The notes beneath the pieces are model-generated. The model was not told where the DNA came from. It saw nothing but the letters and a program-made list of their open reading frames with translations, and did not search any database. A program made the translations under genes and the position numbers. 64,000 nucleotides of DNA from a virus, in IMG/VR virus record IMGVR_UViG_3300025872_000001. One strand, 5' to 3'. Of this stretch, positions 1 through 31,800 are shown in pieces. Every line of letters starts with the position of its first letter. Position 1 is the stretch's first letter.

Positions 1-84
1 ATCGATTGGGAAGGCGTAGACAGGGACGCTGCTGAACAGAAATGGGAACAATATCAAACTGAATTACCTTTTAACACTGTATGA
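1..84 (+). CDS. 3' end of a hypothetical protein (truncated by window start)
   Basis: Open frame 1 (IDWEGVDRDAAEQKWEQYQTELPFNTV*); its TGA overlaps the next ATG (ATGA). Confidence 0.55.
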   Translation: MDWEGVDRDAAEQKWEQYQTELPFNTV

Positions 85-242
85 AAACATTCCGAGTACA
101 ATTCGTTGACGAAATCACTGCCAAGACAGAAGAAGATGCATACGAAGTTCTGCTTCGTTATCTCCGTGACTGTGCAGAGTATGGGGATGCTACCGCATTC
201 CAATTTGAGGAAGTTGAACACAAAGAATATCAGACACATTAA
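81..242 (+). CDS. hypothetical protein, 53 aa (MKTFRVQFVDEITAKTEEDAYEVLL...)
   Basis: Hand translation; ATGA coupling with the upstream gene; below the ORF-track size cut-off. Confidence 0.6.
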   Translation: MKTFRVQFVDEITAKTEEDAYEVLLRYLRDCAEYGDATAFQFEEVEHKEYQTH

Positions 243-246
243 AAAT

Positions 247-262
247 TGTTCCACGTAGAACA
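247..262. promoter_or_regulatory. parS-like site TGTTCCACGTAGAACA
   Basis: One mismatch from the palindrome TGTTCCACGTGGAACA, a form of the chromosomal ParB-binding parS. Confidence 0.5.
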
Positions 263-274
263 TTTGTTGCGAAA

Positions 275-302
275 CCTCCCTACTTGCTTATAAGTGGGGA
301 GG
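275..302. terminator. hairpin between convergent transcription units
   Basis: CCTCCCTACTT-gcttat-AAGTGGGGAGG, 11-bp stem; no clear U-tract. Confidence 0.35.
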
Positions 303-405
303 AAACGTAACATTAACGACTTAGTCTTAAATAAATAAAAGGTGAATCAATAACGAGTTAATAGTAAATAAATAACATATGGTAGGATTGGGGAAAATTC
401 CCCAG

Positions 406-420
406 CCGGGCCTGGCCCGG
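406..420. repeat. 15-bp palindrome CCGGGCCTGGCCCGG, copy 1
   Basis: Read directly; 7-1-7 inverted repeat. Confidence 0.95.
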
Positions 421-500
421 ATTCACGAACCCTTGGCACGCAATGAGTTACAAAACTCGACAACCCGGATTGGTGAAGCGCTGGTATTCAACGAGTTACA

Positions 501-515
501 CCGGGCCTGGCCCGG
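501..515. repeat. 15-bp palindrome, copy 2 (followed by TATATAG array 516-548)
   Basis: Read directly. Confidence 0.95.
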
Positions 516-564
516 CTCTATATAGCGCTATAGTCAGCACTATATAGGCGGGGGGTTAGTTATA

Positions 565-891
565 TCATCCCTCGTAGTGAGCGTATGTATATACAGTCGG
601 GAGACTGACCGCAAACTTTGCGGCGATCTCGTACAGGTGCAGGGCGCAATCCCTGCGGCGAGTGCGGCGGGGAAGCTTCTGAGCATAGAACGCAATCTTC
701 CAGCGCTCATCTTCATTCAGCCAGCCGTTGCGCCTGTATAGAGTCACGGCAGACTCACGCGCAAACATCTTCTCGGCTTCCTCCGGTGTCTTGTCGCTGT
801 ATTCTTCAAGATTCTTCAGAGCCTTTTCGATTCGCTTCTGTTGAATCTGATAACGGGTACGCATCCACTCCAACTTGGTTTTGGTATTCAT
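565..891 (-). CDS. putative DNA-binding protein with C-terminal HTH (108 aa)
   Basis: Start moved to MNTKTK (the longer ORF runs through a terminator); C-terminal LYEIAAKFAVSLPTVYTY resembles an HTH. Confidence 0.55.
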   Translation of the reverse strand: MNTKTKLEWMRTRYQIQQKRIEKALKNLEEYSDKTPEEAEKMFARESAVTLYRRNGWLNEDERWKIAFYAQKLPRRTRRRDCALHLYEIAAKFAVSLPTVYTYAHYEG

Positions 892-956
892 CGCAATTTT
901 TTTTTGAGCAAAACAAACAAAAGTATTAAGAAAAGCGCAATTTGATAAAGCAAGGG

Positions 957-985
957 AAAAAAGGGGGGCGCTGTCACCGCCCCCC
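957..985 (-). terminator. intrinsic terminator after the DUF932 gene
   Basis: Minus strand GGGGGGCG-gtgacag-CGCCCCCC-TTTTTT. Confidence 0.85.
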
Positions 986-991
986 GTTTGA

Positions 992-1756
992 TCAGACCGC
1001 AACCTCCGGTTTGATGTCAACCGTCAAGTTCAGACCCGCGAAGGGGTCGAGGATGCTGTGCAGGGCTTGGCTACGCTTGGGCAGCGCGATCAGGTTGCCC
1101 TTGTACACCTCGGTGAAGGCGTTGTGCAGGGACCAGAGGTTGCGCGGGGCAAACTCCTCATGCGCGGGCTTCTCCCATTGGTCGAGAACGTCGGCAATCA
1201 TCGTCTTGCCAACCGCGCCAGCGCGGTAGCCGCGCAGGATGAGGGTGCCAGCCTCGTCATCGGTGAGAGGGGTCGCCTCGTACTTGGCAACGCGAGCCTC
1301 CTGCTTGTTCCACATATCGGAGAGCGCGCCGATTCCACGCGAAACGATTTGCGGCAGATCGCGCAGGACGTTGGTCGTGTGCTTGCGGGCAAACACGATC
1401 TCGTTATGGAAAACGAGATTGGAGCAGACAAACGGCGCATTGCCAGCGCAGAAGCCAGCAGGGAAGCACTTGTCATGCGAGTTGCGCAGACCGACAACGG
1501 TGCCAGAGGAACCCTGCTTGCCCATGTCGATCTCGAAAAGACCGAAGTAACGCTGACCGAAACGGGCAGTCGTGTGCAGTTCCTGCTTGATCGCAAGACC
1601 CGCAACCTTCATCTGCTCGCGAAAGATCGAAACGAGGTTCGCGTGAGGGATCGGCTGATACGTCTCGGTGGCATTGGGTGTCGGAACCTTGGCGAGATCG
1701 GCAAGGCTGATTTGGGAATTGTCTGCGCCGCAGACATGGAGGTTTACGCTGTTCAT
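992..1756 (-). CDS. DUF932/DUF945-family protein
   Basis: Motifs TYQPIPH, GLRNSHDK, FVCSNL, RNLWSLHNAFTE. Confidence 0.8.
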   Translation of the reverse strand: MNSVNLHVCGADNSQISLADLAKVPTPNATETYQPIPHANLVSIFREQMKVAGLAIKQELHTTARFGQRYFGLFEIDMGKQGSSGTVVGLRNSHDKCFPAGFCAGNAPFVCSNLVFHNEIVFARKHTTNVLRDLPQIVSRGIGALSDMWNKQEARVAKYEATPLTDDEAGTLILRGYRAGAVGKTMIADVLDQWEKPAHEEFAPRNLWSLHNAFTEVYKGNLIALPKRSQALHSILDPFAGLNLTVDIKPEVAV

Positions 1757-1810
1757 TTTTTTATTTGGTTGAGGTTGACGAAAAGAAGTTTGGAGAGATT
1801 TGCGCAGAGT

Positions 1811-2002
1811 TCAAGAACTTTTTTGATTAATTTTCGCGGCGAATTCGGCGGCGTTGCGATCCGTTTCGTCGGCCCTTTCGTTGAGCCACTTCTGGAACGC
1901 TTGGTGGTCCTTGATCTCGACACCAGGAATCTTGTGATAGAAGGCGATGCTGGTGAGAGCGCCGCGCATCGAACCGTACATGATAGGATAATCGTTATTC
2001 AT
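1811..2002 (-). CDS. hypothetical protein (63 aa), leaderless first gene of a cassette
   Basis: ORF track; promoter -10 ends 7 nt before the ATG. Confidence 0.7.
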   Translation of the reverse strand: MNNDYPIMYGSMRGALTSIAFYHKIPGVEIKDHQAFQKWLNERADETDRNAAEFAAKINQKSS

Positions 2003-2009
2003 CGCGAGC

Positions 2010-2037
2010 AGTCTACAAGGTGCAGTTACACTTGCAA
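2010..2037 (-). promoter_or_regulatory. sigma70-like promoter TTGCAA-N16-TAGACT
   Basis: Same geometry as the other cassette promoters; A-tract upstream. Confidence 0.7.
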
Positions 2038-2075
2038 ACTTTTTTTTGCGTTAAATTGAATTTTTTTTCGCGGAG

Positions 2076-2105
2076 CGTGGAACATTTTTGGCGTCGTGGA
2101 ACATT
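2076..2105. repeat. two CGTGGAACATT half-parS-like repeats, 19 bp apart
   Basis: Read directly at 2076 and 2095. Confidence 0.85.
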
Positions 2106-2145
2106 TCATTTTGGAATGAACTCTCTTTTCGGCTTGACGGCCAGG

Positions 2146-2160
2146 CCGGGCCAGGCCCGG
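2146..2160. repeat. 15-bp palindrome CCGGGCCAGGCCCGG, copy 3
   Basis: Read directly; preceded by CTTGAC, followed by TATATA array. Confidence 0.95.
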
Positions 2161-2209
2161 TTTGATACAGCACCCTATATAGAGCGCTATATCAACCAGA
2201 CTTTATATA

Positions 2210-2542
2210 TTAAAATGAGCGTCGAGCAAGAAGATTATTCTCTACATAATCCTTTGCATCCTTGAGCGAAGTGTTGGGGACAAGAGTGCGGACCGCTTTG
2301 ATCAGAGCAATCTTGTTGGGGCAAATGCCCTTGCCAGCGCGATACTCTTCTTGAATGTTCATAGCTTCATCGTAAATCGATGCAATTGCATTGCGAACTT
2401 CGAAATCGAGAAGCGAATTGATCTTCGGGATCGAAGGGACAATAGGCTGTGACACAATGTCGATTTCGATCTGATGATGCTCCAGCCCAGTTTTGGCGGC
2501 GAAAGCATCGATGATGTCGGTTCTGTTGATGACGAGTTTCAT
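2210..2542 (-). CDS. protein with C-terminal ribosomal bL12 (L7/L12) CTD-like motif (110 aa)
   Basis: KIALIKAVRTLVPNTSLKDAKDYVE resembles bL12 KIxVIKxVRxxTGLGLKEAKDLVE; start moved to MKLVIN. Confidence 0.65.
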   Translation of the reverse strand: MKLVINRTDIIDAFAAKTGLEHHQIEIDIVSQPIVPSIPKINSLLDFEVRNAIASIYDEAMNIQEEYRAGKGICPNKIALIKAVRTLVPNTSLKDAKDYVENNLLARRSF

Positions 2543-2546
2543 AGTA

Positions 2547-2759
2547 TTATGATTTGAGGAAGCCGTGATGTTTGAGGAGATTTTCATACTCTGCAAGCAA
2601 TTTCTTTTTGTCGCGAGTGCGGGAACTGCACATTTTGCGAACATGGTTGGAAACAGAACCGCGTGAATTAGTCATGCCCAGAGTTTCAAGCTTAAGCGCG
2701 CTTCTGAAAGCGAGCAAGCGATATGCGAGAATAGCGGAGGGAGTGTCAGCAATGATCAT
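2547..2759 (-). CDS. hypothetical basic protein (70 aa)
   Basis: ORF track; packs 4 nt before the next gene. Confidence 0.7.
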   Translation of the reverse strand: MIIADTPSAILAYRLLAFRSALKLETLGMTNSRGSVSNHVRKMCSSRTRDKKKLLAEYENLLKHHGFLKS

Positions 2760-2850
2760 AGTAGTAAATTGGAGCCGCGCTGCTCATCTCCTATATGATG
2801 AGTGATTAGGGAGTCTTCACGGCTTTGGTTTCTCCCCGTCAGCAAGAGAG

Positions 2851-2878
2851 AGAATGACAGAGTGTGCGCGGTGTGCAA
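2851..2878 (-). promoter_or_regulatory. sigma70-like promoter TTGCAC-N16-CATTCT, followed by an 84-nt leader
   Basis: Same -10 and CTCTC discriminator as the promoters at 5743 and 6450. Confidence 0.7.
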
Positions 2879-2933
2879 CATTTATTTTGAATTTATTTTC
2901 AGTTGCGAGAGAGATTTTGCTTGACACGCACAG

Positions 2934-2948
2934 CCGGGCCAGGCCCGG
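2934..2948. repeat. 15-bp palindrome, copy 4
   Basis: Read directly; preceded by CTTGACA. Confidence 0.95.
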
Positions 2949-2994
2949 ATGCCAAGCCGCAACCAAAAAGTTACAGCAAGGCTCCGATTTTTTA

Positions 2995-3510
2995 TTAGCT
3001 TTCTTCCTCGACTTCCTCCTCCCAACTAAACTCGTCAATTGCAATCTTTTTCCATGCATCAGTTGAAGAGTCGTCTTCGTGTTCTCCGGTTTGATACTCG
3101 CCACCTTCCCAAATGCTGTAGCCAACAAAGCCCATTCCCTCTTCAAGATAAGCAAGCTTGAATTTTAATTCGGGGAACTTGGCTGACAATGCTTGAATCG
3201 CCATTTGAGGCGGCGACCATGCAGTTGTAAAGCACAGCACCATCAACGTCGGGTCGTACTGCTGGATGTCAACTTCATCAATGTCCCACTTGGTTCCCCA
3301 ATTCTGAACGCGCCAATCATACCAATCATACGCGCCATACTTCTCCTTGAATTCATTACGTTTGGCGTGCTTGTCGTTGAATGGTTCAGAGTCTTTCAAC
3401 TCTTCGGGCATTGGGAGAATTTTATTGAACGAGAAAACGTCACCCATCCACTCATTAAAGCGCGTGAAGTCACCGCTGACATACAGGTTATTGGCACACC
3501 AGTTAGGCAT
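2995..3510 (-). CDS. YubB/DUF1281-like ferredoxin-fold protein
   Basis: MPNWCxN start, WYDWRVQNWGTKWD, FTTAWSPP motifs. Confidence 0.75.
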   Translation of the reverse strand: MPNWCANNLYVSGDFTRFNEWMGDVFSFNKILPMPEELKDSEPFNDKHAKRNEFKEKYGAYDWYDWRVQNWGTKWDIDEVDIQQYDPTLMVLCFTTAWSPPQMAIQALSAKFPELKFKLAYLEEGMGFVGYSIWEGGEYQTGEHEDDSSTDAWKKIAIDEFSWEEEVEEES

Positions 3511-3515
3511 AGGAT

Positions 3516-3698
3516 TTAATCGTTTAGGTTATTATCGTCGCAATAGATTGTCATTCCCTTGTCGTAACCAGCCTTGTAATCGCTGCCAGCGTTGGGGCTG
3601 TTCATTTTTTTCACAGCCTCGTAATCGTATGAGCCTTTGTTGTAAGCATCAAGCACACCGCGCAGGTATGCGTAGGTAGGTTCAATCATTGGTTTCAT
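3516..3698 (-). CDS. hypothetical protein (60 aa)
   Basis: ATGA coupling with the upstream gene. Confidence 0.65.
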   Translation of the reverse strand: MKPMIEPTYAYLRGVLDAYNKGSYDYEAVKKMNSPNAGSDYKAGYDKGMTIYCDDNNLND

Positions 3699-4054
3699 AT
3701 TTGAGCAAAGATTCTTTTCCCGTAGATGGCAACGTAACGGGCATTTTTAATTGGCGACCCATCCTTTGCAAGCACAAAAGTGGAATACTTGTAGGGATTG
3801 TAAGTCACCTCCACAGAATTCTCGGGGATAACTTGGCTGATTGCTGTGCGGAGATAATTGTCCCAATCGCCGCGCACCCATGCGTGAACATTCTTGCGCT
3901 TGTTCTTCAGCACACGCTGCCGCCCCGCCTCACTAACGTGGAACGTGGGGTTGTCGAGGGTAATCGCAGGGGCGTGGGCAATCACTTTCCCATTGACACG
4001 AATCGACAGCATGTGTTTATGCAGGTTGAAGTAGACTTCCGTTTTGATTTTCAT
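3695..4054 (-). CDS. conserved phage hypothetical protein
   Basis: VYFNLHK, GRQRVLxxKRKNVHA, YNPYK motifs; ATGA coupling. Confidence 0.7.
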   Translation of the reverse strand: MKIKTEVYFNLHKHMLSIRVNGKVIAHAPAITLDNPTFHVSEAGRQRVLKNKRKNVHAWVRGDWDNYLRTAISQVIPENSVEVTYNPYKYSTFVLAKDGSPIKNARYVAIYGKRIFAQI

Positions 4055-4269
4055 GATTCTTGTTCAGCAAACATTTCTTCCCAGACATGGGGAGGAGTAC
4101 CAGTCATGATGAACTCGCGCTCATCAGCGGTCAAGAAAAAAAATGCTTCTTGAATCAGCGCGCCAAGATCGCATTTCATCAAAGCCGTGGCGTATTGCTC
4201 TTCAGTCATCGTGGGAAAATCCATCGTGTAGATTTGCCCGTTGAATTGGCATCGTTTGGTTAGTTGCAT
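4051..4269 (-). CDS. conserved phage hypothetical protein (72 aa), leaderless
   Basis: LIQEAFxxLTADEREFIMTG motif; promoter directly upstream. Confidence 0.7.
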   Translation of the reverse strand: MQLTKRCQFNGQIYTMDFPTMTEEQYATALMKCDLGALIQEAFFFLTADEREFIMTGTPPHVWEEMFAEQES

Positions 4270-4276
4270 GGTTAAG

Positions 4277-4304
4277 AGTGTGAATAAAAAATCCGTGAGT
4301 GCAA
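4277..4304 (-). promoter_or_regulatory. sigma70-like promoter TTGCAC-N16-CACACT
   Basis: 7 nt upstream of ATG 4269. Confidence 0.65.
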
Positions 4305-4358
4305 CAGCAAAAGAAGAAACAACAAATAAATAAATACGAAATAATGCTTGACAACCCG

Positions 4359-4452
4359 CCGGGCCTGGCCCGGAATCCTCACCTGGTGCACCTGGCGAAT
4401 AAAAAATCTGCGCTCTCGCGAAATTTTCGGTTTTCTGCCGGGCCTGGCCCGG
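4359..4452. repeat. palindrome copies 5 and 6 (4359-4373, 4438-4452) enclosing a 64-bp core
   Basis: Near-duplicate of 6607-6700. Confidence 0.95.
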
Positions 4453-4575
4453 ATTATATAGCGCCTATATAGCACTATACAATCACTATATAGTTTCGGT
4501 GGTGTTTAATGAAGGGCAACGAAACCTCCCCATGCCGCAAGCTCTCCTTGCGTACTATTCCACCGAAAAAATTAT

Positions 4576-4803
4576 TTAGTTAGCATAAGCCAAGCGGCCT
4601 TCTGTAGTCACTAGAGGGCGGCGACCTTCGGCTCCCTCTAGATACTCTATAACCTCCGCGCTAGTGGCGAGGCGCATATAAGAGTTAGGCCACCCCACAA
4701 GATCTTCCCGATGATAAGAGGTCGCGCATACACGCGGACCCGTTGCAATCACGCGCTCCACTCGGCGCGTCCTTGTATTATACCACAGTTGACCGTTTTT
4801 CAT
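4576..4803 (-). CDS. hypothetical protein (75 aa, MKNGQLWYN...)
   Basis: ATGA coupling to the hydrolase stop. Confidence 0.65.
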   Translation of the reverse strand: MKNGQLWYNTRTRRVERVIATGPRVCATSYHREDLVGWPNSYMRLATSAEVIEYLEGAEGRRPLVTTEGRLAYAN

Positions 4804-5306
4804 TTGTAGAAGATATGATGATTGATTTGAACCGTCTTGACAAGCTTTTTCGCCCAACTCGGGGAAACTTTTTCGGCGTGATAATGCGTCGCGCCGTTGG
4901 TGTAATTCGTTTTCTGATTAACTAAAGCGAGAGCCTGTGACCATTTCGGATGGCGCTTTGCTTTCGCGATTCCGTCCTCGACGTTTTTTCCATTCCAACA
5001 CGAAAATTGTTTCGGCGCGAGAATGACGGCAAGTTCCGTTTTATTCTTGGCGCGATTCGCGATCACCTCGCGAACCGCCGCCATTGCGCGGGGATCAGCC
5101 TCCCCACCCGCTTCCAAGATCAGAGTCGCCGCCACAATCTCCCCACGCGAGACGGTGACCGTGGTGGTCTGCCCCCGCAGCGATAAGACGGCCCCAAAAA
5201 GCAGCGTCAGCAGTAACAACCGAAAAACCGCGCAAAGCAAGATGCTTTTCAACAAGCTCGGTGTTCCATTCATATTTTTGCAGGAGGTATGCGAATTGTC
5301 TTTCAT
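4800..5306 (-). CDS. SleB/Hydrolase_2-family cell wall hydrolase with hydrophobic N-terminal segment (start uncertain)
   Basis: TLILEAGGE, VIANR, KQFSCWN, TNGATHYHA, PSWA, HHIFY motifs. Confidence 0.85.
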   Translation of the reverse strand: MKDNSHTSCKNMNGTPSLLKSILLCAVFRLLLLTLLFGAVLSLRGQTTTVTVSRGEIVAATLILEAGGEADPRAMAAVREVIANRAKNKTELAVILAPKQFSCWNGKNVEDGIAKAKRHPKWSQALALVNQKTNYTNGATHYHAEKVSPSWAKKLVKTVQINHHIFYK

Positions 5307-5319
5307 TTACTGATTTCAT
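5095..5319 (-). CDS. hypothetical protein overlapping the hydrolase 5' end
   Basis: ATGA coupling with the 5316 stop; long out-of-frame overlap. Confidence 0.4.
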   Translation of the reverse strand: MKSVNERQFAYLLQKYEWNTELVEKHLALRGFSVVTADAAFWGRLIAAGADHHGHRLAWGDCGGDSDLGSGWGG

Positions 5320-5504
5320 GAGGTGACCTTGGTGGCGTATTCTTCTGCGCGCTTTTCCATCTCAACAAGCTCGCGGTCAATCTTGGCGCGGAATTCCGCG
5401 ACAGCCTTGCGGCTCATATTCACGGGGAGGTAAAGGTCGATACTCTTGAGGAGGCTTTCCATGCCGCCCTTGAGGTAGATTTCTTTGAGTTCGTTTTTGT
5501 TCAT
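5316..5504 (-). CDS. hypothetical protein (62 aa), leaderless
   Basis: ORF track; promoter 7 nt upstream. Confidence 0.7.
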   Translation of the reverse strand: MNKNELKEIYLKGGMESLLKSIDLYLPVNMSRKAVAEFRAKIDRELVEMEKRAEEYATKVTS

Positions 5505-5511
5505 GAGAGAG

Positions 5512-5539
5512 AGTGTGGAGATTTTTTTTGTTTCGTCAA
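5512..5539 (-). promoter_or_regulatory. sigma70-like promoter TTGACG-N16-CACACT
   Basis: CTCTCTC then ATG 5504. Confidence 0.7.
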
Positions 5540-5549
5540 CAACTTTTTT

Positions 5550-5735
5550 TCACTTTTTGAACCAGCGGAAAACGGTGCGATTCGCGGAGGAAAATTCGAC
5601 GATGTACTCCGTGAAGGTAGCGGGGACAATTTGGAAAACGTCGTTTTTCATGGCGCGAGCTTGGCACGCTTTCCAAGCGAGTTCGCAACCCGAACCCTGC
5701 GCGATGATGATTGAAGACCAGCGGTAGTTTTTCAT
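5550..5735 (-). CDS. hypothetical protein (61 aa), paralogue of 6732-6926
   Basis: Start moved to MKNYRW; aligns with 6732-6926. Confidence 0.75.
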   Translation of the reverse strand: MKNYRWSSIIIAQGSGCELAWKACQARAMKNDVFQIVPATFTEYIVEFSSANRTVFRWFKK

Positions 5736-5742
5736 GAGAGAG

Positions 5743-5770
5743 AGAATGACGAAAAAATCCGTGAAGTCAA
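5743..5770 (-). promoter_or_regulatory. sigma70-like promoter TTGACT-N16-CATTCT
   Basis: CTCTCTC then ATG 5735. Confidence 0.75.
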
Positions 5771-5796
5771 ATTTTTTTTCAGATTTTTTTTTGGAG

Positions 5797-5883
5797 CGTG
5801 GAACATTCTGCGCGTCGTGGAACATTTCATTTTAAATTGAAAGTTCATTTTCGCTTGACGGCAGGGCGCCGGGCCTGGCCCGG
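5797..5883. repeat. intergenic module: 2x CGTGGAACA (5797, 5816), CTTGAC, palindrome copy 7 (5869-5883)
   Basis: Near-duplicate of 2076-2160. Confidence 0.9.
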
Positions 5884-5938
5884 ATTTATATAACACTATA
5901 TAAAGGGATGTAGAGTCCCTATATAGAGAGTCTATATA

Positions 5939-6208
5939 TCACTCGCCCATACTATAGTGGTCATCATAGGCGGACCCGTAGTCCTCGTCGGTGCCGAGGC
6001 CAGCAGACGCGAGGGCATCCGCATCCGCCTCCGCATCGGTGCGGAAGCCGTCAAACGGCTCCTCCTCGTTGGCGGCGTTATAGGACGCCTGTAGGGTGTC
6101 GATGACCGCATCAAGCTGCGGCGCGTTCATCGCGTCGGCGGCATCGCGCAGCGCGGCGAGAACGAGGGAGGCTTCGGTGAGGGTGAGGGCGAGGTTGATC
6201 TGGTTCAT
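5939..6208 (-). CDS. hypothetical acidic protein (89 aa), leaderless
   Basis: ORF track; D/E-rich C-terminus DAEADADALASAGLGTDEDYG. Confidence 0.75.
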   Translation of the reverse strand: MNQINLALTLTEASLVLAALRDAADAMNAPQLDAVIDTLQASYNAANEEEPFDGFRTDAEADADALASAGLGTDEDYGSAYDDHYSMGE

Positions 6209-6215
6209 GGGGATA

Positions 6216-6243
6216 AAAGTAAGAAAAAATTCGTGCAGGTAAA
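6216..6243 (-). promoter_or_regulatory. sigma70-like promoter TTTACC-N16-TACTTT
   Basis: 7 nt upstream of ATG 6208. Confidence 0.6.
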
Positions 6244-6256
6244 GAAAAAAGTGAAA

Positions 6257-6284
6257 GAAAAAAAGGGGCGCTCAGAGCGCCCCC
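6257..6284 (-). terminator. intrinsic terminator overlapping the stop of 6272-6442
   Basis: GGGGCGCTC-t-GAGCGCCCC inverted repeat followed by a T-run on the minus strand. Confidence 0.75.
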
Positions 6285-6442
6285 GAATCGACAAGGGCCG
6301 CGAGGCGATCCCAAGCGGCGTCAACTTCGTCGTTGATGGCGTTGACCATATCAAACCAAGCGTGCAGATCGGCGCGGTCAGCGTCGGTCAGATTGGCGTA
6401 CTCGGCGGCGGCGTTGCTGGGGAGGGAGTTGATGAGGTTCAT
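6272..6442 (-). CDS. hypothetical acidic protein (56 aa, MNLINSLPSNAAAEYANLTDADRADLHAWFD...)
   Basis: Hand translation; has its own promoter and terminator; absent from the ORF track. Confidence 0.75.
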   Translation of the reverse strand: MNLINSLPSNAAAEYANLTDADRADLHAWFDMVNAINDEVDAAWDRLAALVDSGAL

Positions 6443-6449
6443 GAGAGAG

Positions 6450-6477
6450 AGAATGAAACTTTTTTCGGTGCGGTCAA
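6450..6477 (-). promoter_or_regulatory. sigma70-like promoter TTGACC-N16-CATTCT
   Basis: CTCTCTC then ATG 6442; phased A-tracts upstream (6479-6510). Confidence 0.75.
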
Positions 6478-6514
6478 CTTTTTTTTCAGATTTTTTTCAG
6501 ATTTTTTTTCAGAG

Positions 6515-6575
6515 TGTGGAACATTTCGCGCATCGTGGAACATTTTCGTGGAACATTTTTTTCTGCGTGGAACAT
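6515..6575. repeat. four GTGGAACATT half-parS-like repeats
   Basis: At 6515, 6534, 6547, 6566. Confidence 0.85.
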
Positions 6576-6606
6576 TTTTTTTTCTTGACACGCGCCTGGC
6601 GCGGGG

Positions 6607-6700
6607 CCGGGCCTGGCCCGGAATCTTAGCCTGGTGCACCTGGCGAATAAAAAATTTACCGTCTCGCGAAATTTTGGGTTTTTCACCGGGCCTGGCCCGG
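6607..6700. repeat. palindrome copies 8 and 9 (6607-6621, 6686-6700) enclosing a 64-bp core
   Basis: Near-duplicate of 4359-4452. Confidence 0.95.
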
Positions 6701-6731
6701 ATTTATATAGCGCTATATAAACCCTTATATA

Positions 6732-6926
6732 TTATTTACGAAACCAGCGCACAATTGTTATATGGCCCTTCGGTATAACAACTATATATTCCTCGCCCAA
6801 CGCTTTAGCAATTTCGAAGTGGGTGCCACTCATTGCGTTTGCTTGCTGGGTAGCGAAGGCCGCAGCGCAATCCGCGCCGCGAGCAATTATCTGAGACGCC
6901 CAACCGTAGTGCATTTGTTTTTTCAT
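6732..6926 (-). CDS. hypothetical protein (64 aa), paralogue of 5550-5735
   Basis: Shared pattern YxWxSxIIAxGxxC..A...QAxAM....FxI....EYIV....RWFxK. Confidence 0.75.
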   Translation of the reverse strand: MKKQMHYGWASQIIARGADCAAAFATQQANAMSGTHFEIAKALGEEYIVVIPKGHITIVRWFRK

Positions 6927-6932
6927 GCTGCT

Positions 6933-6960
6933 ACCTTACCAGAAAAACGGCCCCGCGCAA
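6933..6960 (-). promoter_or_regulatory. sigma70-like promoter TTGCGC-N16-TAAGGT
   Basis: 6 nt upstream of ATG 6926; back-to-back with the 7004 promoter. Confidence 0.6.
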
Positions 6961-7003
6961 GTTTTTTTTCGCATTTTTTTCGATTTTTTTTCGCATTTTT
7001 TTC

Positions 7004-7031
7004 TTGCAAGTGTGCGCGCTGCGTGTATCTT
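7004..7031 (+). promoter_or_regulatory. sigma70-like promoter TTGCAA-N16-TATCTT
   Basis: 6 nt upstream of ATG 7038; same hexamers as 7822. Confidence 0.75.
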
Positions 7032-7037
7032 TCCCGC

Positions 7038-7736
7038 ATGAAACTCAATCTCCTGTCAGTAGGTGCAGATGCCAAGACAAGCAAGGGCGAGGCTTTCGGA
7101 TGGCTGACGGCTATTCTCTACCTTGCGCCAGCGCGCCAAGCTGGGCGCGGCGAAGTTTGCACGCATCGGTCAGCTGGATGCACGCTTGCGTGCCTCTACA
7201 CGGCGGGGCGTGGTAAGATGTCCAACGTGCAGCAAGCGCGCATTCGGCGCACTCAATTATTTTTCGATGACTTCGCGACCTTCAAGGCTCTTCTCTTCGC
7301 TGACATCCGCGCATTCGTTGCAAACTGTGAAAAGCAAGGGATGCGCGCTTGTGTTCGCTTGAACGGTACAAGCGACATTGCGTGGGAGCGGCTGGGCGTG
7401 TTCGCTGCGTTCCCTTCCGTGCAGTTCTATGACTATTCGAAGAGTCCGATTCGTGCCTTGCAATTTGCCAAGGGCGCAATGCCGAGCAATTACCATTTGA
7501 CTTTCTCGCGCAGCGAAAGCAACGAAGCGCAAGCAATCGACGTTCTCCGCGCAGGTGGCAACGTGGCGGTTGTGTTCGCGAACTACCTTCCCCCAACGTG
7601 GGAAGGGTTTCCCGTGGTGAACGGTGACGAAAGCGACTTGCGTTTCCTTGACAAGCGCAACGTGGTGGTTGGCCTCAAGGCGAAAGGCGCAGGCAAAAAA
7701 GATGCAACTGGGTTTGTCGTGACCGCAACGCTGTGA
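7038..7736 (+). CDS. GP88-like phage protein (Cys motif, radical-SAM-like)
   Basis: LYLAPA, Cx6Cx3C, RLNGTSD, FYDYSK, NYHLTFS, GDESDLRFLD motifs; start moved to MKLNLL. Confidence 0.8.
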   Translation: MKLNLLSVGADAKTSKGEAFGWLTAILYLAPARQAGRGEVCTHRSAGCTLACLYTAGRGKMSNVQQARIRRTQLFFDDFATFKALLFADIRAFVANCEKQGMRACVRLNGTSDIAWERLGVFAAFPSVQFYDYSKSPIRALQFAKGAMPSNYHLTFSRSESNEAQAIDVLRAGGNVAVVFANYLPPTWEGFPVVNGDESDLRFLDKRNVVVGLKAKGAGKKDATGFVVTATL

Positions 7737-7774
7737 ACGCCGAGCTTTTCCCTCTTGTTTTGTTCTTAGTCCTT

Positions 7775-7799
7775 GCCCTTGCGTTACTTACGCAAGGGC
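7775..7799. terminator. hairpin, possible terminator
   Basis: GCCCTTGCGT-tactt-ACGCAAGGGC. Confidence 0.5.
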
Positions 7800-7821
7800 G
7801 AAGAAAAAGATAAAAAATTCC

Positions 7822-7849
7822 TTGCAATGCGGGGCGCGTGTGCTATCTT
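7822..7849 (+). promoter_or_regulatory. sigma70-like promoter TTGCAA-N16-TATCTT
   Basis: 6 nt upstream of ATG 7856. Confidence 0.75.
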
Positions 7850-7855
7850 AGCAGC

Positions 7856-8038
7856 ATGAAAAACAAAATGATTATCAACGGTAAGGTGGTCGAAGATTAC
7901 AAGCTGCACGTCGAAGGTGATTGCGGTGATGGCTCTTGGATTGAGTGGGCGAAGTTCGAAGATGGAACAGAGCTAGAAGGTGAAGAGCTATTCGAATTCG
8001 AAAAAGTTTACTTGCCCGACTTGGTGTGGGGTAGGTGA
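7856..8038 (+). CDS. hypothetical acidic protein (60 aa), leaderless
   Basis: Start moved to MKNKMI. Confidence 0.7.
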   Translation: MKNKMIINGKVVEDYKLHVEGDCGDGSWIEWAKFEDGTELEGEELFEFEKVYLPDLVWGR

Positions 8039-8263
8039 CACCCTCCCCCATTAATTAAAAATCGCGACCCGCGTTTCCGTGGGGGCGCGGGGGGGGTGGT
8101 ATTTAGTCCGCTCTACCCCAATTTTAAATACCCTAAACTATCTCTTTATCTTCTTCTATATCTATCTTTATCCCTTTATATGTATACTATACTATGCATC
8201 TATGGGGGCTGTGGGGGCTTAATGTGTTATATACGATACGTTATTGGGGGTGTAAAAAGAAGT

Positions 8264-8473
8264 ATGAGAATCAATTCGGACATGGGTTTAGGAGCAGTAG
8301 CAAGAATGTATGAAAAGAACTCAACTTTAGGTTCAGTATCAAAGGCCGCTGATTGGTTTGGGGATGTGGAGAAGATAGATGAACTTAAAAAAGCATTAAT
8401 AATGGCAATTGATTGCGGCAATTTCGATAAAGCTTTGTTTATACTTAAACAGTTACAAACTCTTAAAGCGTAA
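8264..8473 (+). CDS. hypothetical protein (69 aa)
   Basis: Start MRINSD, 7 nt after GTGTAAA (8250). Confidence 0.6.
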   Translation: MRINSDMGLGAVARMYEKNSTLGSVSKAADWFGDVEKIDELKKALIMAIDCGNFDKALFILKQLQTLKA

Positions 8474-8566
8474 CTATTTCTTAACTATCGCAAGATAGCC
8501 TACTGTAAGCATCAATATAAGAACAATAATCAACCAATCTGTTTCTAGATCGTTGTTCTTCTTCAC
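8474..8566 (-). CDS. small membrane peptide (30 aa, GTG start)
   Basis: MKKNNDLETDWLIIVLILMLTVGYLAIVKK; GTGTAAA 7 nt upstream. Confidence 0.45.
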   Translation of the reverse strand: MKKNNDLETDWLIIVLILMLTVGYLAIVKK

Positions 8567-8662
8567 GGGGATATTTACACCCCACGCCCCCATTTATAGA
8601 AAATGGGGAAAATTCCCCAATTCTATTTGTTTAGGTGAACCGGGAAACCGGGGAGGGTCATT

Positions 8663-8764
8663 TTACCAATGATGAATAATATTAATTATAAGGGCAACAT
8701 CAGCGATGATTGCTAAAATCATTAAAACAAATTGAAAGCGCTCACTCTTAGTGTCGAATTTCAT
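8663..8764 (-). CDS. small membrane peptide (33 aa)
   Basis: MKFDTKSERFQFVLMILAIIADVALIINIIHHW; ATGA coupling to the glycosyltransferase. Confidence 0.5.
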   Translation of the reverse strand: MKFDTKSERFQFVLMILAIIADVALIINIIHHW

Positions 8765-9309
8765 TTTTTATTTATTATTTTTTTAAATCTTCTACTAGCT
8801 TGATTTTGCCCAATAACAATTTCATTAGTCTTGATATAGTCTATTTTACAATACGAAAGCGGAAGTTTATAGTAATTTATCTTCCAATTATTTACGATTT
8901 GCTGCAAAACTTTTTGATCCCATTTTTGGGGATTTTCATTATTTAGTTTTATCCACTCGTCTAATAATTTAAAATTATTTTCAGTGGGCTTAAAAAATAA
9001 TGTCCCAGACATTAACTCTTGGCGATAAAAACACAAACCAAGATCCTCATTGATTTGACAGAAAATGTCTGGAGATTTTTTTAAAACAGCATCTGCGTCA
9101 AGCCAAACCACCGGGGTATTTAACTGTTTAAGCTTTTCTTTTATTATATAGGCTTTATATTGACAGTTTTTTTCCCATGTGCCTTTATTTTCAAAAGGCA
9201 CTAAATGTTCATCAGTAAATCCAAACTGTTTTAAAGAAATTCTTAAATTATTTATTTCTTTTTCGTAAGGAGTGTTTTTTGTATATCCGCTTACTATTTT
9301 GTAGTTCAC
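8761..9309 (-). CDS. GT-A glycosyltransferase (nucleotide-diphospho-sugar transferase-like)
   Basis: VVWLDADAV (DxD), SGTLFF, WDQKVLQ, LPLSYC, NQASR. Confidence 0.8.
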   Translation of the reverse strand: MNYKIVSGYTKNTPYEKEINNLRISLKQFGFTDEHLVPFENKGTWEKNCQYKAYIIKEKLKQLNTPVVWLDADAVLKKSPDIFCQINEDLGLCFYRQELMSGTLFFKPTENNFKLLDEWIKLNNENPQKWDQKVLQQIVNNWKINYYKLPLSYCKIDYIKTNEIVIGQNQASRRFKKIINKK

Positions 9310-16905: not shown

Positions 16906-17872
16906 CAATTCCAACTGTTGCAAAATATGCCACAGTTCCTTTCCTTCCGAAAGGAGCCTACATGCGCATTTAAAAAAGCACAAGATTGGTCTTGATGAGT
17001 ATTATCTTGCACATTATCCTAGAAAAAACCTGCTAACAGGCACTTATTTGCAATTTAAGGACAAGGAGTCTTATTTTGAAAAGGACTTTGAAAACAGAAA
17101 TCAGCTTTTGAGATGGTGTGAGATAGAATCGCCAGAAACTGTTAAAGCTCAAATTAAAAAAATGCTGGCTTATAGAATAAAAAGCAAAGATTTAAAATAT
17201 GCGCCATGTCATTTAGAGTTGGAAACTAGTGAAATGCCGACAGTTGATTTGTACAAGAAACATTTTGGGTCTTATTCTAATGTTTGTGCAGAAATAGGAA
17301 TTGAGCCTATGTTTAAAAAGAGTTTGCCCAAAAAGTTTTACGAAGATTATTCTAATATTAATATATTTGTTGATACCAGAGAACAGCAGCCTTTAAGCTT
17401 TAAAAGCGAAAAGAAAGTAAAGTTAGATTTTGGCGATTATACCGCTAGCGGTTCAAATTATACAAAAACATTCGTAGATAGAAAGTCAGAATCTGATTTT
17501 AAAGGTACATTAGTTGGTGAAAATCTGGATAGATTTAGGCGTGAACTGCAAAGATGCAAAGATATGGAATGTTATTTATTTATTGTGGTAGAATCTACTT
17601 TAGAACGTATAAGTAGTAACAACGACTTTACTCCTCATAAGGCGAATTTAAAATTTATATATCATAATATGAGATTATTGCAGCATGAGTTTGCAAAAAG
17701 CTGCCAATTTATATTTTCGGGTAACAGAACCAATAGTGAAATTATTATTCCAAAGCTAACTGCCATTGGTAGCGCACTTTGGGATGTAGACGTTCAATAT
17801 TTTATAGACAAGAACTCATCATGGCTTGGATCGAAGGAAACCAAAAAAGAAAAAGCTTATTCCGTAACGTAA
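16895..17872 (+). CDS. C2H2 zinc finger + ERCC4/XPF-type nuclease
   Basis: CKIC...LHAHLKKH; VDTREQ, GDY, VDRKSESD. Confidence 0.75.
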   Translation: MQSDNSNCCKICHSSFPSERSLHAHLKKHKIGLDEYYLAHYPRKNLLTGTYLQFKDKESYFEKDFENRNQLLRWCEIESPETVKAQIKKMLAYRIKSKDLKYAPCHLELETSEMPTVDLYKKHFGSYSNVCAEIGIEPMFKKSLPKKFYEDYSNINIFVDTREQQPLSFKSEKKVKLDFGDYTASGSNYTKTFVDRKSESDFKGTLVGENLDRFRRELQRCKDMECYLFIVVESTLERISSNNDFTPHKANLKFIYHNMRLLQHEFAKSCQFIFSGNRTNSEIIIPKLTAIGSALWDVDVQYFIDKNSSWLGSKETKKEKAYSVT

Positions 17873-19689
17873 ATCAAGAGATCCTTGAAAAGAAAGGATT
17901 CTTGGAAGAAAGAGAAGCTAAAATTCTTCTCTACAAATTCTTGCGTTCAAATATTTCATTTTCTTCGGAGATTATTTGTGGCGTTAAGTTGTTCCCATTT
18001 CAACATATGGCAATTAAAACCATGTTTGAAACGGATTATTCTATGATGGTGTGGAGTCGTGGACTCTCAAAGAGCTTTACCTGTGCAGTATTTGCGTCTC
18101 TCGACGCAATATTAAATCAGGGTGTGCATATCGGCATTGTTAGTAAAACATTCCGTCAGGCTAAAATGATTTTCCGTAAGATAGAAGAAATTGCAGAAAA
18201 GCCTAACGCTGTATTTTTGAAACAATGCATAACCAAAGTTTCCAAAAGCTCAGACGAATGGACAATGGAAATTGGGCGTAGTAAAATTACTTGTTTGCCA
18301 CTTGGAGACGGTGAAAAGCTGCGCGGTTTTCGTTTTCACCGCATGATGATCGATGAATTCTTGCTGATGCCTGATCGCATTTTTAATGAAGTTATTATTC
18401 CGTTCCTTTCCGTTGTGCAAAACCCAACCGAAAGAAAACAAGTTTACGATTTAGAGACTGAACTAATTAAGCGCGGAGAAATGAAAGAGGAAGATAGGTT
18501 TGCTTGGCCCAATAATAAGATTATTGTTCTATCCTCTGCATCTTATCAGTTTGAATACATGTATAAACTGTACAAACAGTACGAGGATTTGATTGTCACG
18601 CCAGAAAGAAACGCTAAAGGCGCAGCGACAAGAGCTATATTGCACTTTTCTTATGATATTGCGCCTCATGGCTTATATGATGAAAGTTTGTTGACGCAAG
18701 CTAAGGCAACGATGTCCGAATCACAATTTAAAAGAGAATTCGGCTCACAATTTGTTGACGACTCTTCTGGTTATTTCAAACTTAGTAAAATGCATGAATG
18801 TACAATTAAAGTTGGAGAGGGGCAGTCTATTGAATTGGCGGGAGAAAAGAATGCAGAATATATTTTAAGCTTTGACCCATCTTGGGCAGAAAACGAATCT
18901 TCTGACGATTTTGCAATGAACGTAATCAAACTGGATAAAACAACTCGTAAAGGAATTCTTGTACATAATTATGCGCTTTCTGGAACAAACTTAAAAAAGC
19001 ATATTGAGTATCTTCATTATTTGTTCACTCATTTTAATATTGTTGCAATGTGCGGTGACTATAACGGAGGCTTGCAGTTTATAAACGCTGCAAATGAAAG
19101 CGAACTTTTTAAAAACAATAAAATTGAAATTAAAATTTTTGAGGCAGACTTTGATACTCCAGAAACTTACCAAGATGAGTTAAGAAAAGCAAGAAATACA
19201 TATAATAAAAGCACTAATAAAATTTGCTACTTACGCATTCCAACTAGCGGTTGGATAAGATACGCTAATGAACTTCTTCAGTCTAACTTTGATCACAGAA
19301 AGATTCTTTTCGCAGCCGAAGCCGTAGATAATGATTTTACAACGCAAAAAAGCAAAAATATTCCAATTAAAGGACTTAAGTTTATCCGAGATCAAGAAGA
19401 TGGTCAAAGCGCTGAAGCAAAAATGGTTGATTTCGTTGATCATCAGGCCGATATGATTGAACTTGTTAAGGCAGAATGCTCTCTTATTATGCCCACAACA
19501 ACAGCTAATGGGCATCAAAGCTTTGATTTGCCGCCAGAATTAAGAAAACAGAGTGGAGCAGAAAAAACAAGAAAAGACTCCTATTCTTGTTTGGTCCTTG
19601 GTAATTGGATGACCAAGGTATATTTCGATATGATGGATGTAAAAGTTGAGAAAACAACTTCTACATTTGTGCCATTTTTCGCTAGGTAA
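17821..19689 (+). CDS. terL: terminase large subunit
   Basis: LFPFQ, SRGLSKS (Walker A), LRGFRFHRMMIDE (Walker B), SFDPSW...DDFA and RKDSYS nuclease motifs; start at MAWIEG. Confidence 0.9.
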   Translation: MAWIEGNQKRKSLFRNVNQEILEKKGFLEEREAKILLYKFLRSNISFSSEIICGVKLFPFQHMAIKTMFETDYSMMVWSRGLSKSFTCAVFASLDAILNQGVHIGIVSKTFRQAKMIFRKIEEIAEKPNAVFLKQCITKVSKSSDEWTMEIGRSKITCLPLGDGEKLRGFRFHRMMIDEFLLMPDRIFNEVIIPFLSVVQNPTERKQVYDLETELIKRGEMKEEDRFAWPNNKIIVLSSASYQFEYMYKLYKQYEDLIVTPERNAKGAATRAILHFSYDIAPHGLYDESLLTQAKATMSESQFKREFGSQFVDDSSGYFKLSKMHECTIKVGEGQSIELAGEKNAEYILSFDPSWAENESSDDFAMNVIKLDKTTRKGILVHNYALSGTNLKKHIEYLHYLFTHFNIVAMCGDYNGGLQFINAANESELFKNNKIEIKIFEADFDTPETYQDELRKARNTYNKSTNKICYLRIPTSGWIRYANELLQSNFDHRKILFAAEAVDNDFTTQKSKNIPIKGLKFIRDQEDGQSAEAKMVDFVDHQADMIELVKAECSLIMPTTTANGHQSFDLPPELRKQSGAEKTRKDSYSCLVLGNWMTKVYFDMMDVKVEKTTSTFVPFFAR

Positions 19690-28812: not shown

Positions 28813-31800
28813 ATGGGTAAGTATTATCTAGGCACAGGTAATCAACAGATTAATTTCCAAGTCGTTGACTCGACGGGAGTTATAAATGATTTAAATTTAA
28901 GCGGCCTGTATCTAAGTATCACTGGCAAAGCCACCGATGCTGATAAACTAGATAATTACGATAGTTCATTTTTTAGAAACGCGGCAAATTTAACTGGAAC
29001 ATACACAGGATCAGTTAGCGGTAAAGCTGCTGATTCTGAACTTCTTGATGGTCTTGATAGTTCTTATTTTTTAAATGGCGCGAATATTACTGGAACTGTT
29101 GCCTTAAGCGGAACGTTTACAGGTTATTATACTGGCGCATTCAGTGGTACTATCACCCATACTGATTCGATTACATTTCACTCTGGATTAGGAATTAATC
29201 CTGATCCTGCGGAATTAAGTTGGGAAGATGGGGTAGGCACAATGAATCTTGGCCTTAAAGGAGGCAATGTTGATTTGCGTGTTGGCTTACAAAATTATGA
29301 GTATGTAACAAATCGTACTGCATCTACAATTTCAAAAGGTTCAGTTATTTATGTTAGTGGCGCGCAAGGTAATCGCCCATCAATTTCTTTAGCTCTTGGA
29401 GCAGCAGATACTACTTCAGCAAATACATTTGGTTTGGCCGCTGAAGATATCGCTTCGATGGCAGACGGTTATGCTATCACAAATGGCTTGCTCACTAATC
29501 TTAATACAACTGGATTTGCAGAAGGCGCAGCCCTTTATCTTTCACCAACAGTTTCTGGCGCGATCACTTCAACTAAACCACAAGCTCCACAGCATAGTGT
29601 ATTAGTTGGTTTCTGTGTTCGTTCACACCAGAGCGCGGGTGAGATTCTCGTTAAAATTCAAAATGGTCTTGAGATTGATGAGCTTCACGATGTTAGAATA
29701 TTAAACAAGCAAAATAATGATATTATTAGGTATCATGCGCCTTCTGGCGTTTGGTATAATAGCGATACACTGGCGATTAATGGAACTGGCGCGAATTATA
29801 TTTCTGGAGATTTAGGAATTGGTATCGCTTCGCCAAGTGCAAAGCTTCATATTTTTGGCGCAGATAAAAGACAGATTATTACTTCGACAACAGACAATGC
29901 GGCGCTTGTTCTTGGTCAGTGGGACGGCACAACAAATCGCATTGAATCTTCTACAAGAAAACTTTTATTAACATCTTATGCTAATGGAATTTCATTAGGC
30001 ATCAATGGATCTGAAAATGTACACGTTAGCACAAGTGGATATTTAGGAATTGGAACAACAAGTCCATTAACAACATTAAATTTATCTATTTCTGGGGGAA
30101 ACGGTCCGGTATATCAAACATTCACTGATACTACAAACGCATATCATCACGGATATGTTGGGAAAAACGGTGGCGGACTAGTATTTGGATTTTCAAGTCA
30201 AAATGGAAGTTTTTCCACCGATGAAAAGATGCGGATTACAACATCGGGTAATGTTGGTATTGGAACAACCTCTCCTGGATATAAACTTGATATCCAAGGA
30301 GGATCAATTAGAGTTCTTGATGCCGCTGGCCCAGTTATTAATTTATCCGATAATTCAACTAGAAATTGGGACATTGGATTAAACGCTACAACTGACGCTT
30401 TCTATATTAGAGATGTTGTAGCAGCTGTCACCAGAATGACAATTAATACTTCTGGTAGCACGACGTTTGATGGCGAACTCACACTCATTGGTTCAAAATT
30501 GGCCTTTACCGATGACGGAACAAATATTAACGCAACGGTGACGAGTCGAAGACTTCAACTTGTTGCAACTGGAAGTTCTGTTGTAACTGGCTACAATACC
30601 GATTTCTATTTCTCAAATGAGACATCTGTTGCGAAATATAATGGCAATGTTGGTATTGGCATAACAAATCCCACTAACAAATTAGAAATTGCGACAGGAA
30701 ATTCTGCCACAACTGGTATTAGAGTTAGAGACTCTGCTAACGGTGTTTGGACAGATATATACAGAGCAACTATAAAATTTTTTGGTGGGGGAGGAGTTAT
30801 TGATACAAATGATACAACAGATGCAATAGATATAAGACAAGCTGGTAATAGCAGATTATTTATAGCGCAATCAAATTCAACATATAATGGAGTTTCAGTT
30901 GGAGGTTGGGTTGGTATAGGAACAAGCGCACCTTCGCAACGTTTAGAAGTTTTAGGCGATTTAGATATGGCTGGTCTCAAAGTAACGACGACGACTGGCA
31001 GAGGAAGAATAACCGTTGCTTCTCAAACTATATCATATAGTTCATATTTAGAATTAAATAGTGGCGAAAGTCAAATTGCTTTCTTGGATGGAAATTATAA
31101 TTCTAATCGTTTAAGAATCGCTACAAATCGCACTGGTGCATATATTGCATTTGAGACAGACGCGCAAAGTGAAAAAATGCGCATTACCAGTTCTGGCAAT
31201 GTTGGTATAGGAACAACAAGTCCTACATCAAAATTATATGTCAGTGGAGACATTGCTGCAAATGTAGATAATTCGCTTGGTGTTAAACTAAATAGAAGTG
31301 CCACAAATGTTTGGAATGGTATAGGATACTCCACGGCAAATTCAACCAAATGGTTCGTCGGATTGAGAGAAAGCGGGGATGACAATTTAAGATGGTACAA
31401 TTACACCAATACAAGTGAAAAAATGGTTTTAACGGAAGCTGGAAGTCTTGGTATTGGTACTACTACTCCAACTTATAAACTCCATGTTGTAGGAGATGCC
31501 AGAATTGGCACAAATGGACAACGCGTATATTTATTTGATGATGGTAATGCTCATATACATTCTGGTTCTGGGCCACTTTGGTTAAATGCTGAAGATGCAA
31601 GTGGTATATATATTAATAATCAAAACAACGGTAGCGTTTATTTGACTAATGGAACTGGAAGAGTAGGCATCGGAACCACATCAGTATCATATAATCTTGA
31701 AGTAGCTAAAGCGTCAGCTGGAGCAACATTTGCAGTTAATGCTGATATGTCTGCCGCTGGAGAAGCTTCAATTATAGCATTTACTTCAAAACAGTATAAT

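Follow-up and report, generated by a model that had tools for sequence, protein, structure and literature searches.

A 64,000-nt stretch of viral DNA (IMG/VR record IMGVR_UViG_3300025872_000001), which we refer to in full as "the window," carries nine copies of a 15-bp palindrome, CCGGGCC-W-GGCCCGG, all of them near one end. The window comes from a tailed phage, with a gene for the large terminase (17779–19689), a 2,208-aa tape measure protein, and a fiber with an S74 chaperone domain. GC content is ~36% throughout the window, with the exception of positions 1–8000, where it is ~50%, and the palindromes occupy a 6.5-kb, ~50% GC island of small leftward genes. There are ~16 such genes at 565–6926, on the minus strand without exception. 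Their products include a DUF932 protein, a DUF1281_C protein, a secreted cell-wall hydrolase, and homologs of gp82 and gp88 of mycobacteriophage L5. Most of the gene cassettes have a host-type leaderless promoter, i.e., TTGNNN, 16 nt, a YAYNCT-like element, ~7 nt, and the ATG start codon. Upstream of the gene at 5550–5735, for example, the arrangement is TTGACT, 16 nt, CATTCT, 7 nt, ATG. No tRNA genes were found in the window, an Rfam scan of 1–9000 returned nothing notable, and a nucleotide search of known phages with the window gave zero matches.

A search of the 64 kb for the palindrome (pattern CCGGGCCWGGCCCGG) returned exactly nine matches, starting at 406, 501, 2146, 2934, 4359, 4438, 5869, 6607, and 6686, which are the positions given in the original prediction; there are none elsewhere. 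Essentially no matches are expected by chance (0 in 100 dinucleotide-preserving shuffles). All nine copies fall between accepted genes, confirming that they are intergenic. Two database open reading frame (ORF) calls, 379–525 and 6233–6778, both on the plus strand, overlap copies and are probably spurious, because a 95-bp insertion/deletion (indel) in the related locus L087 breaks the first, and the second is antisense, crossing T-runs and modules that have been replaced in the close relative L039. Three pairs of copies are spaced 95, 79, and 79 bp apart, and both of the 79-bp pairs enclose related 64-nt inserts. The central base is A in the copies at 2146 and 2934, and T in the other seven. 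The island and the copies are listed here:

243–7040, minus strand: GC-rich (~50%) island of ~16 small genes, containing every palindrome copy of the window
406–420, no strand: palindrome copy 1 (center T), at the convergent junction between plus-strand genes on the left and the island; a TGGGGAAAATTCCCCA palindrome at 389–404 abuts it
501–515, no strand: palindrome copy 2 (center T), at a distance of 95 bp from copy 1; next come a CTATATAG-type array and the stop codon of 565–891
2146–2160, no strand: palindrome copy 3 (center A), between the stop codon of 2210–2542 and the promoter region of 1811–2002
2934–2948, no strand: palindrome copy 4, center A in the window and T at the orthologous L039 site
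4359–4373, no strand: palindrome copy 5 (center T), the promoter-side member of a pair
4374–4437, no strand: 64-nt insert between paired copies, with 89% identity to the insert at 6622–6685 (98-nt repeat including both copies)
4438–4452, no strand: palindrome copy 6 (center T), adjoining a CTATATAG array and the stop codon of 4576–4803
5869–5883, no strand: palindrome copy 7 (center T)
6607–6621, no strand: palindrome copy 8 (center T)
6686–6700, no strand: palindrome copy 9 (center T), 31 nt past the stop codon of 6732–6926

Distribution and conservation of the palindrome

Relatives were drawn from a scan of IMG/VR for the 15-mer, from the records of five relatives (27–70 kb), and from loci found with the DUF932 protein as a probe; in place of a whole genome, the count beyond the window used fragments of the window's own record (L126–L129) and the five relatives' records. 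The scan returned ~108 single matches in high-GC contigs (median GC, 66%), which we take to be chance, and ~10 moderate-GC loci with two to eight copies each. In the five relatives' records, all copies lie within one ~7-kb stretch, a ~50% GC island in a 36–40% GC genome. The palindrome is not randomly spread in these records, a possibility that the original prediction had raised against itself. Related viral contigs with a DUF932 identity of at least 69% have six to nine copies per phage, confined to the equivalent island. Among the 45 loci found with the DUF932 probe, the palindrome occurs in each of the 12 whose identity is 69% or higher and in none of the 33 at 50% or lower. The phages that carry it are uncultivated, aquatic, and ~134 kb in size; a weak lead to their host comes from a single Opitutales metagenome-assembled genome contig with a 52% DUF932 relative. 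A literature search did not find the 15-mer in any paper.

The GC contrast between island and genome (~50% versus 36–40%) is kept in every relative examined (L121–L125, L056, and L074). It is therefore a stable feature, and neither a recent import nor an assembly chimera.

Three lineages of palindrome-bearing phages, g1 (the lineage of the window), g2, and g3, have the palindrome arms in common and unrelated flanks. The palindrome of g1 has CTATATAG arrays on one flank and GTCAAG on the other. That of g2 is set between TTTTACA-type T-rich and TGTAAAA-type A-rich elements, and that of g3 lies within arrays of TGTTCCACG repeats. A protein look-up for g2 gene calls returned no entries.

Copy classes were counted in 17 non-redundant contigs. 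The arms are perfect in 86 of the 99 copies (~87%), and the other 13 differ by a single mismatch; copies with two mismatches do not occur. Compensated changes, i.e., pairs of substitutions that restore base pairing, are absent. One change, C to G at position 13 or its mirror at position 3, accounts for nine of the 13 variants. It converts the word into a tandem of three CCGGG units, which destroys the dyad. Three g2 phages retain this variant at their orthologous site, and in g3 it is common. In g1, information content stays at 2 bits throughout the two arms and drops to at most 0.5 bits beginning with the first base of either flank. The original prediction held that the center is always A or T. 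This is true of the window and fails in relatives, where all four letters occur (group 1: T17, A15, G9, and C7), and the center flips at orthologous sites between the window and L039 (406, T versus A; 2934, A versus T). Because the arms are near-invariant, the flanks unrelated, compensated changes absent, and the center free, the 15-mer appears to be read by sequence. The pattern looks like the signature of a sequence-read word with an uncontacted center, rather than that of a structure maintained by pairing.

Spacer architecture and the terminator question

In gene direction, the module of the window consists of a stop codon, two to four CTATATAG-type palindromes, the 15-mer, 5–16 nt, GTCAAG, two to four AATGTTCCACG repeats, A-tracts, a promoter, and ATG. 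Palindrome-bearing junctions in the window comprise five that are co-directional and the convergent junction at the left edge. The palindrome is missing from the divergent promoter region at 6927–7037 and from both junctions with canonical terminators (963–985 and 6264–6284). Further features of the spacers are as follows:

963–985, minus strand: canonical intrinsic terminator (8-bp GC stem and T6) after the DUF932 gene, at a junction without the palindrome
6264–6284, minus strand: canonical intrinsic terminator after the gene at 6272–6442, at a junction without the palindrome
2076–2112, plus strand: CGTGGAACATT repeat pair, an example of the arrays between palindrome and next promoter; further arrays lie at 5797–5833 and 6515–6583

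The 15-mer can fold into a hairpin with a 6-bp stem and a 3-nt loop (−10.3 kcal/mol), GC-rich like that of an intrinsic terminator. However, a U-tract on the gene (minus) strand is missing from all nine copies, and none precedes an uninterrupted T-run, whereas the true terminators within the island do have T6–7. On the plus strand, ATTTATATA follows the copies at 5869 and 6686 and was scored as terminator-like in a loose scan. In g2, T-runs lie upstream and A-runs downstream of the palindrome, the reverse of terminator order. About half of the g2 copies are located ~20 nt past a canonical GC hairpin and T-run, and ~100 nt before the next promoter. Because a canonical terminator lies upstream of these sites and the next promoter ~100 nt downstream, the palindrome is probably not transcribed there. 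The g2 copies also have an outer inverted repeat; its sequence is conserved, it is often present on one side only, and it lacks covariation. On these grounds, we rejected an extended hairpin in g2. The lack of a U-tract, the reversed T- and A-runs, the upstream terminators, and the g2 repeat without covariation place the function of the palindrome on DNA. The claim that it is not a terminator is further supported by its near-invariant, uncompensated arms amid unrelated flanks and by the presence of separate canonical terminators, which in g2 are just upstream.

A structural role need not be that of a terminator. The palindrome could be the dyad of a module like the promoter-early stem-loop (PeSL) elements of T4-type phages, forming a hairpin or cruciform that acts as an attenuator, a 3′-end stabilizer, or a duplex clamp, with the identity of its copies due to module exchange and not to a reader. 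We consider this possible, if on the unlikely side. PeSLs have a matching architecture, in which ORFan cassettes are separated by AT-rich upstream DNA, a GC stem-loop, and a host-type promoter (PMC2839356). The hairpin is stable (see above), and in g1 the palindrome and the canonical terminators use different junctions. In sister clades, some palindrome-less relatives carry variable-length G4–7C4–7 palindromes at the equivalent module position, with up to nine per locus, and others have none. This distribution suggests that a GC-rich dyad is an ancestral feature of such spacers, of which this clade would have fixed one exact word. The stem-loops of T4-type PeSLs often consist of poly-G followed by poly-C (PMC2839356); together with the GnCn palindromes of the sister clades, they keep the structural reading alive as the main rival. 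Counting against a structural dyad are the missing U-tract, the g2 T-runs before and A-runs after the palindrome, and the real terminator just upstream in g2. Moreover, not one of the 99 copies has a compensated change, a recurrent dyad-breaking variant is retained, and flanks diverge from the first base beyond the 15-mer.

The hairpin also has the shape of an N4-type promoter for an injected phage RNA polymerase, with its 6-bp stem and 3-nt loop upstream of early-looking genes. This role is scarcely credible. The loop base is free, in contrast to the loop of such promoters, and it flips without a change in gene direction; copies are also found at convergent junctions; and a host-type promoter is already present in each cassette. 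The giant ORF at 28813–35280 resembles fiber adhesins and not a polymerase. Segments of its 2,155-aa product are similar to Bdellovibrio mosaic adhesive trimer fibers (8ond and 8ojn), and the protein is probably a long fiber or adhesin.

Several other repeats share the spacers with the 15-mer. Arrays of CTATATAG / TATAGCGCTATA palindromes are found at 518–549, 2175–2210, 4455–4495, 5886–5940, and 6703–6730. In both g1 and g3, they are always located between the gene stop codon and the GC palindrome, at junctions without a canonical terminator. The second palindrome, TGGGGAAAATTCCCCA (389–404; 8236–8252 and 8975–8990 in L039), abuts some copies of the 15-mer and has been gained or lost among close relatives. 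A near-perfect parS-like palindrome, TGTTCCACGTAGAACA, is positioned at the island edge (248–263). Direct repeats of its half-site, TGTTCCACG, lie upstream of promoters (2076–2112, 5797–5833, 6515–6583, and in L138/L139), with as many as 11 per locus in g3, and an identical asymmetric variant recurs in g2. ParB_N (PF02195) had no match in three partial relatives, and the parS-like sites are a motif separate from the 15-mer. The motif TCAACGAGTTA and its variants are repeated near the convergent junction (311–375 and 440–500). This motif recurs five to six times in distant palindrome-less relatives (L142, L143, and L162), and is therefore older than the GC palindrome.

On the plus strand (2134–6621), CTTGAC boxes lie 5–16 nt ahead of the palindrome, oriented against the genes. 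We considered whether such an "orphan" TTGAC box and the palindrome form a plus-strand promoter, and rejected this, since the spacing varies from 5 to 16 nt and there is no downstream −10 element. In the distant relative L150, the upstream half of a genuine promoter looks similar to the adjoining TTGAAAGTT...CTTGAC stretch, and the boxes may be relics of inverted promoter halves. A leader of ~100 nt upstream of the gene at 2547–2759 (2760–2850, minus strand) is kept between lineages with ~76% identity (L123, 10130–10246). Since a leaderless-type promoter with a TTG start precedes it, this region may be a short upstream ORF or, alternatively, a structured leader.

Recombination footprints and candidate readers

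Recombination at the palindrome, as proposed in the original prediction, is supported by two footprints. L087 has one copy where the window has the 406/501 pair, and both outer flanks are preserved; this is a clean indel between two palindrome copies. The L137 lineage differs from all others in having the DUF932 cassette inverted, with copies at its boundaries. The 64-nt insert at 4374–4437, for its part, behaves like a palindrome-bounded mini-cassette. Gene order varies between lineages, and many breakpoints fall outside the palindrome. A joint in L132, presumed to be recombinant, proved to be mosaic, not clean, on base-by-base inspection. Alignments end at the palindrome more often than expected (51 observed versus 18 expected). 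We do not count this as evidence of recombination, since it is expected for a conserved word amid diverged flanks.

Taken further, the palindrome could be a dedicated crossover site, in the manner of an integron or shufflon, at which cassettes are excised, inserted, and inverted, with its symmetry permitting either orientation. Consistent with such a site are the L087 indel, the inverted cassette, the differences in gene order, the flips of the center at orthologous sites, and the presence of a RuvB homolog beside the island and an endonuclease VII gene nearby. Nonetheless, we consider it quite unlikely. No match to serine/tyrosine recombinases (PF00589 and PF00239) was found in the five partial records, which jointly span most of the genome. 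The 1-bp center is at odds with known tyrosine/serine recombinase core sites, which have a spacer of 6–8 bp or 2 bp. In addition, many breakpoints lie elsewhere, several joints are mosaic, and a role in evolvability alone would not keep ~87% of copies perfect.

The RuvB homolog is full-length (E of 1e-15 to RuvB structures) and is encoded behind the gene for an 86-aa AT-hook protein (L039, 654–890 and 904–1838, just left of the window; L126, 11847–13054); the endonuclease VII gene is ~8 kb beyond it. Both the RuvB homolog and the AT-hook protein flank the island in every palindrome-bearing lineage whose contig reaches far enough, and both are missing near DUF932 in the palindrome-less clade. 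Since many other genes are likewise absent from that clade, this co-occurrence is only a lead. It is unlikely, in our estimate, that a protein reads the 15-mer both as a two-way "stoperator" insulator and as a recombination target, with cassettes excised, inserted, or flipped without an integrase of a known family, perhaps by way of the RuvB homolog and endonuclease VII.

A protein encoded close to the palindromes had been put forward as the binder:

565–891, minus strand: 108-aa protein with a C-terminal helix-turn-helix (HTH)-like helix pair, the earlier candidate binder

The HTH-like motif of this protein has invariant S, T, V, and Y residues. The protein has only 19 close homologs, and its AlphaFold model has a predicted local distance difference test (pLDDT) score of 86. 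Pfam and PHROGs gave no match, the best match of its profile to the PDB had an E-value of 0.56, and a Foldseek search with the model gave no significant match. Homologs are absent from 5 of the 12 palindrome-bearing loci and from the corresponding records, which are fragments. The protein therefore does not appear to be an obligatory partner of the palindrome, and its proposed role as the binder is not supported. A host factor is a possible reader.

An alternative raised at the outset was that the palindrome acts as a decoy or methylation sensor; as a restriction-modification element, it could also be a protected target cluster. The tetramer CCGG is depleted, with an observed/expected ratio of 0.41 in 8001–64000 (28 observed versus 68 expected) and 0.23 in the palindrome-masked island (4 observed versus 17 expected). 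The nine palindromes hold 18 of the 50 CCGG sites in the window. GGCC is mildly depleted in the same two regions. A restriction-modification role is nevertheless very improbable: a GC-only palindrome nearly unavoidably packs such tetramers, the five partial relatives yielded no C5 methyltransferase, and cleavage at these sites would destroy the phage.

A candidate boundary site and its closest analogs

We tentatively favor the view that the palindrome is a symmetric protein-binding boundary site in PeSL-like composite spacers, with recombination as a consequence. The 15-mer, CCGGGCC-N-GGCCCGG, would be a symmetric site on double-stranded DNA, recognized by its sequence; the most likely reader would be a dimeric protein with contacts to the two 7-bp half-sites and none to the central pair. 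The site lies at a seam where the end of one cassette (a terminator or CTATATAG array) is followed by the palindrome, the repeat arrays and A-tracts, and the next leaderless promoter. Bound protein would mark or insulate cassette boundaries, e.g., as a bidirectional roadblock or as an island-wide regulatory handle. We infer the binding and its effect from the sequence pattern described above. Because the site is identical everywhere, it would also act as a joint for the loss, gain, or flipping of cassettes.

Several points weigh against a protein-binding boundary site. The hairpin is stable by itself (−10.3 kcal/mol), and the GnCn palindromes of the sister clades hint that GC-rich dyad symmetry as such may matter. 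The distance from the palindrome to the next promoter ranges from ~25 to 130 nt, so there is no fixed operator geometry. Repeated exchange at the site could help to keep the copies alike. Finally, no binding protein has been found so far.

The 15-mer is a conserved hallmark of its phage lineage, and kin to known phage intergenic punctuation. Its closest analogs are the PeSL cassettes of T4-type phages and the stoperators of mycobacteriophages. Like the spacers described here, those of PeSL cassettes are composite and conserved, and they separate small ORFan cassettes within a hyperplastic region; they combine AT-rich DNA with a host-type promoter and a GC-rich dyad, and exchange between copies shuffles genes (PMC2839356, PMC4122927). 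The PeSL stem-loop has been shown to terminate transcription, and conservation extends over ~100 bp (PMC2839356, PMC4122927). By contrast, the spacers of the island have only 15 invariant bp, no U-tract, separate canonical terminators, and leaderless promoters, and they belong to an unrelated phage lineage.

Stoperators of cluster A mycobacteriophages, e.g., L5, are likewise many near-identical short sites in short early-type intergenic spaces, to which a single protein binds and blocks transcription elongation (PMC9283540). The island shares with the phages that carry them its homologs of L5 gp82 and gp88. Stoperators are asymmetric, orientation-dependent 13-mers, bound by a monomeric immunity repressor and distributed genome-wide in temperate phages (PMC9283540). 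The site described here differs in being a perfect palindrome, whose sole asymmetric base flips between orthologs, and in being confined to one island. No repressor or integrase was found in the partial records searched, and the only nearby HTH-like gene is the one missing from 5 of 12 loci, as judged from fragmentary records.

Two systems outside phages have similar features. The OB operators of IncP plasmids, recognized by the ParB-family protein KorB, are odd-length perfect palindromes with one free central base. About a dozen are repeated upstream of the operons of a mobile element, where they serve as a global control site. The 15-mer resembles them in being an odd-length, repeated palindrome with a free center; their sequences are unrelated, and no ParB_N domain was found in the three partial relatives. 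The repetitive extragenic palindromic (REP) sequences and bacterial interspersed mosaic elements (BIMEs) of enterobacteria form mosaic spacers of palindromes and short motifs, like those of the island. REPs are longer, imperfect, chromosomal, and spread by a dedicated transposase, in contrast to the short, perfect site in this phage island.

Accessory-gene islands house fast-changing phage genes, often with roles in counter-defense, and the wiring and reshuffling of such islands are known in detail for few model phages. Here, one exact 15-bp word punctuates the cassettes across a whole uncultivated lineage, while loose GnCn palindromes take its place in sister lineages. Should the word be read by a protein, it would provide a handle for a new regulator or boundary factor, as well as a sequence tag for such islands in metagenomes. 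If the word is instead a recombination joint, it would represent an integrase-free route to cassette shuffling.

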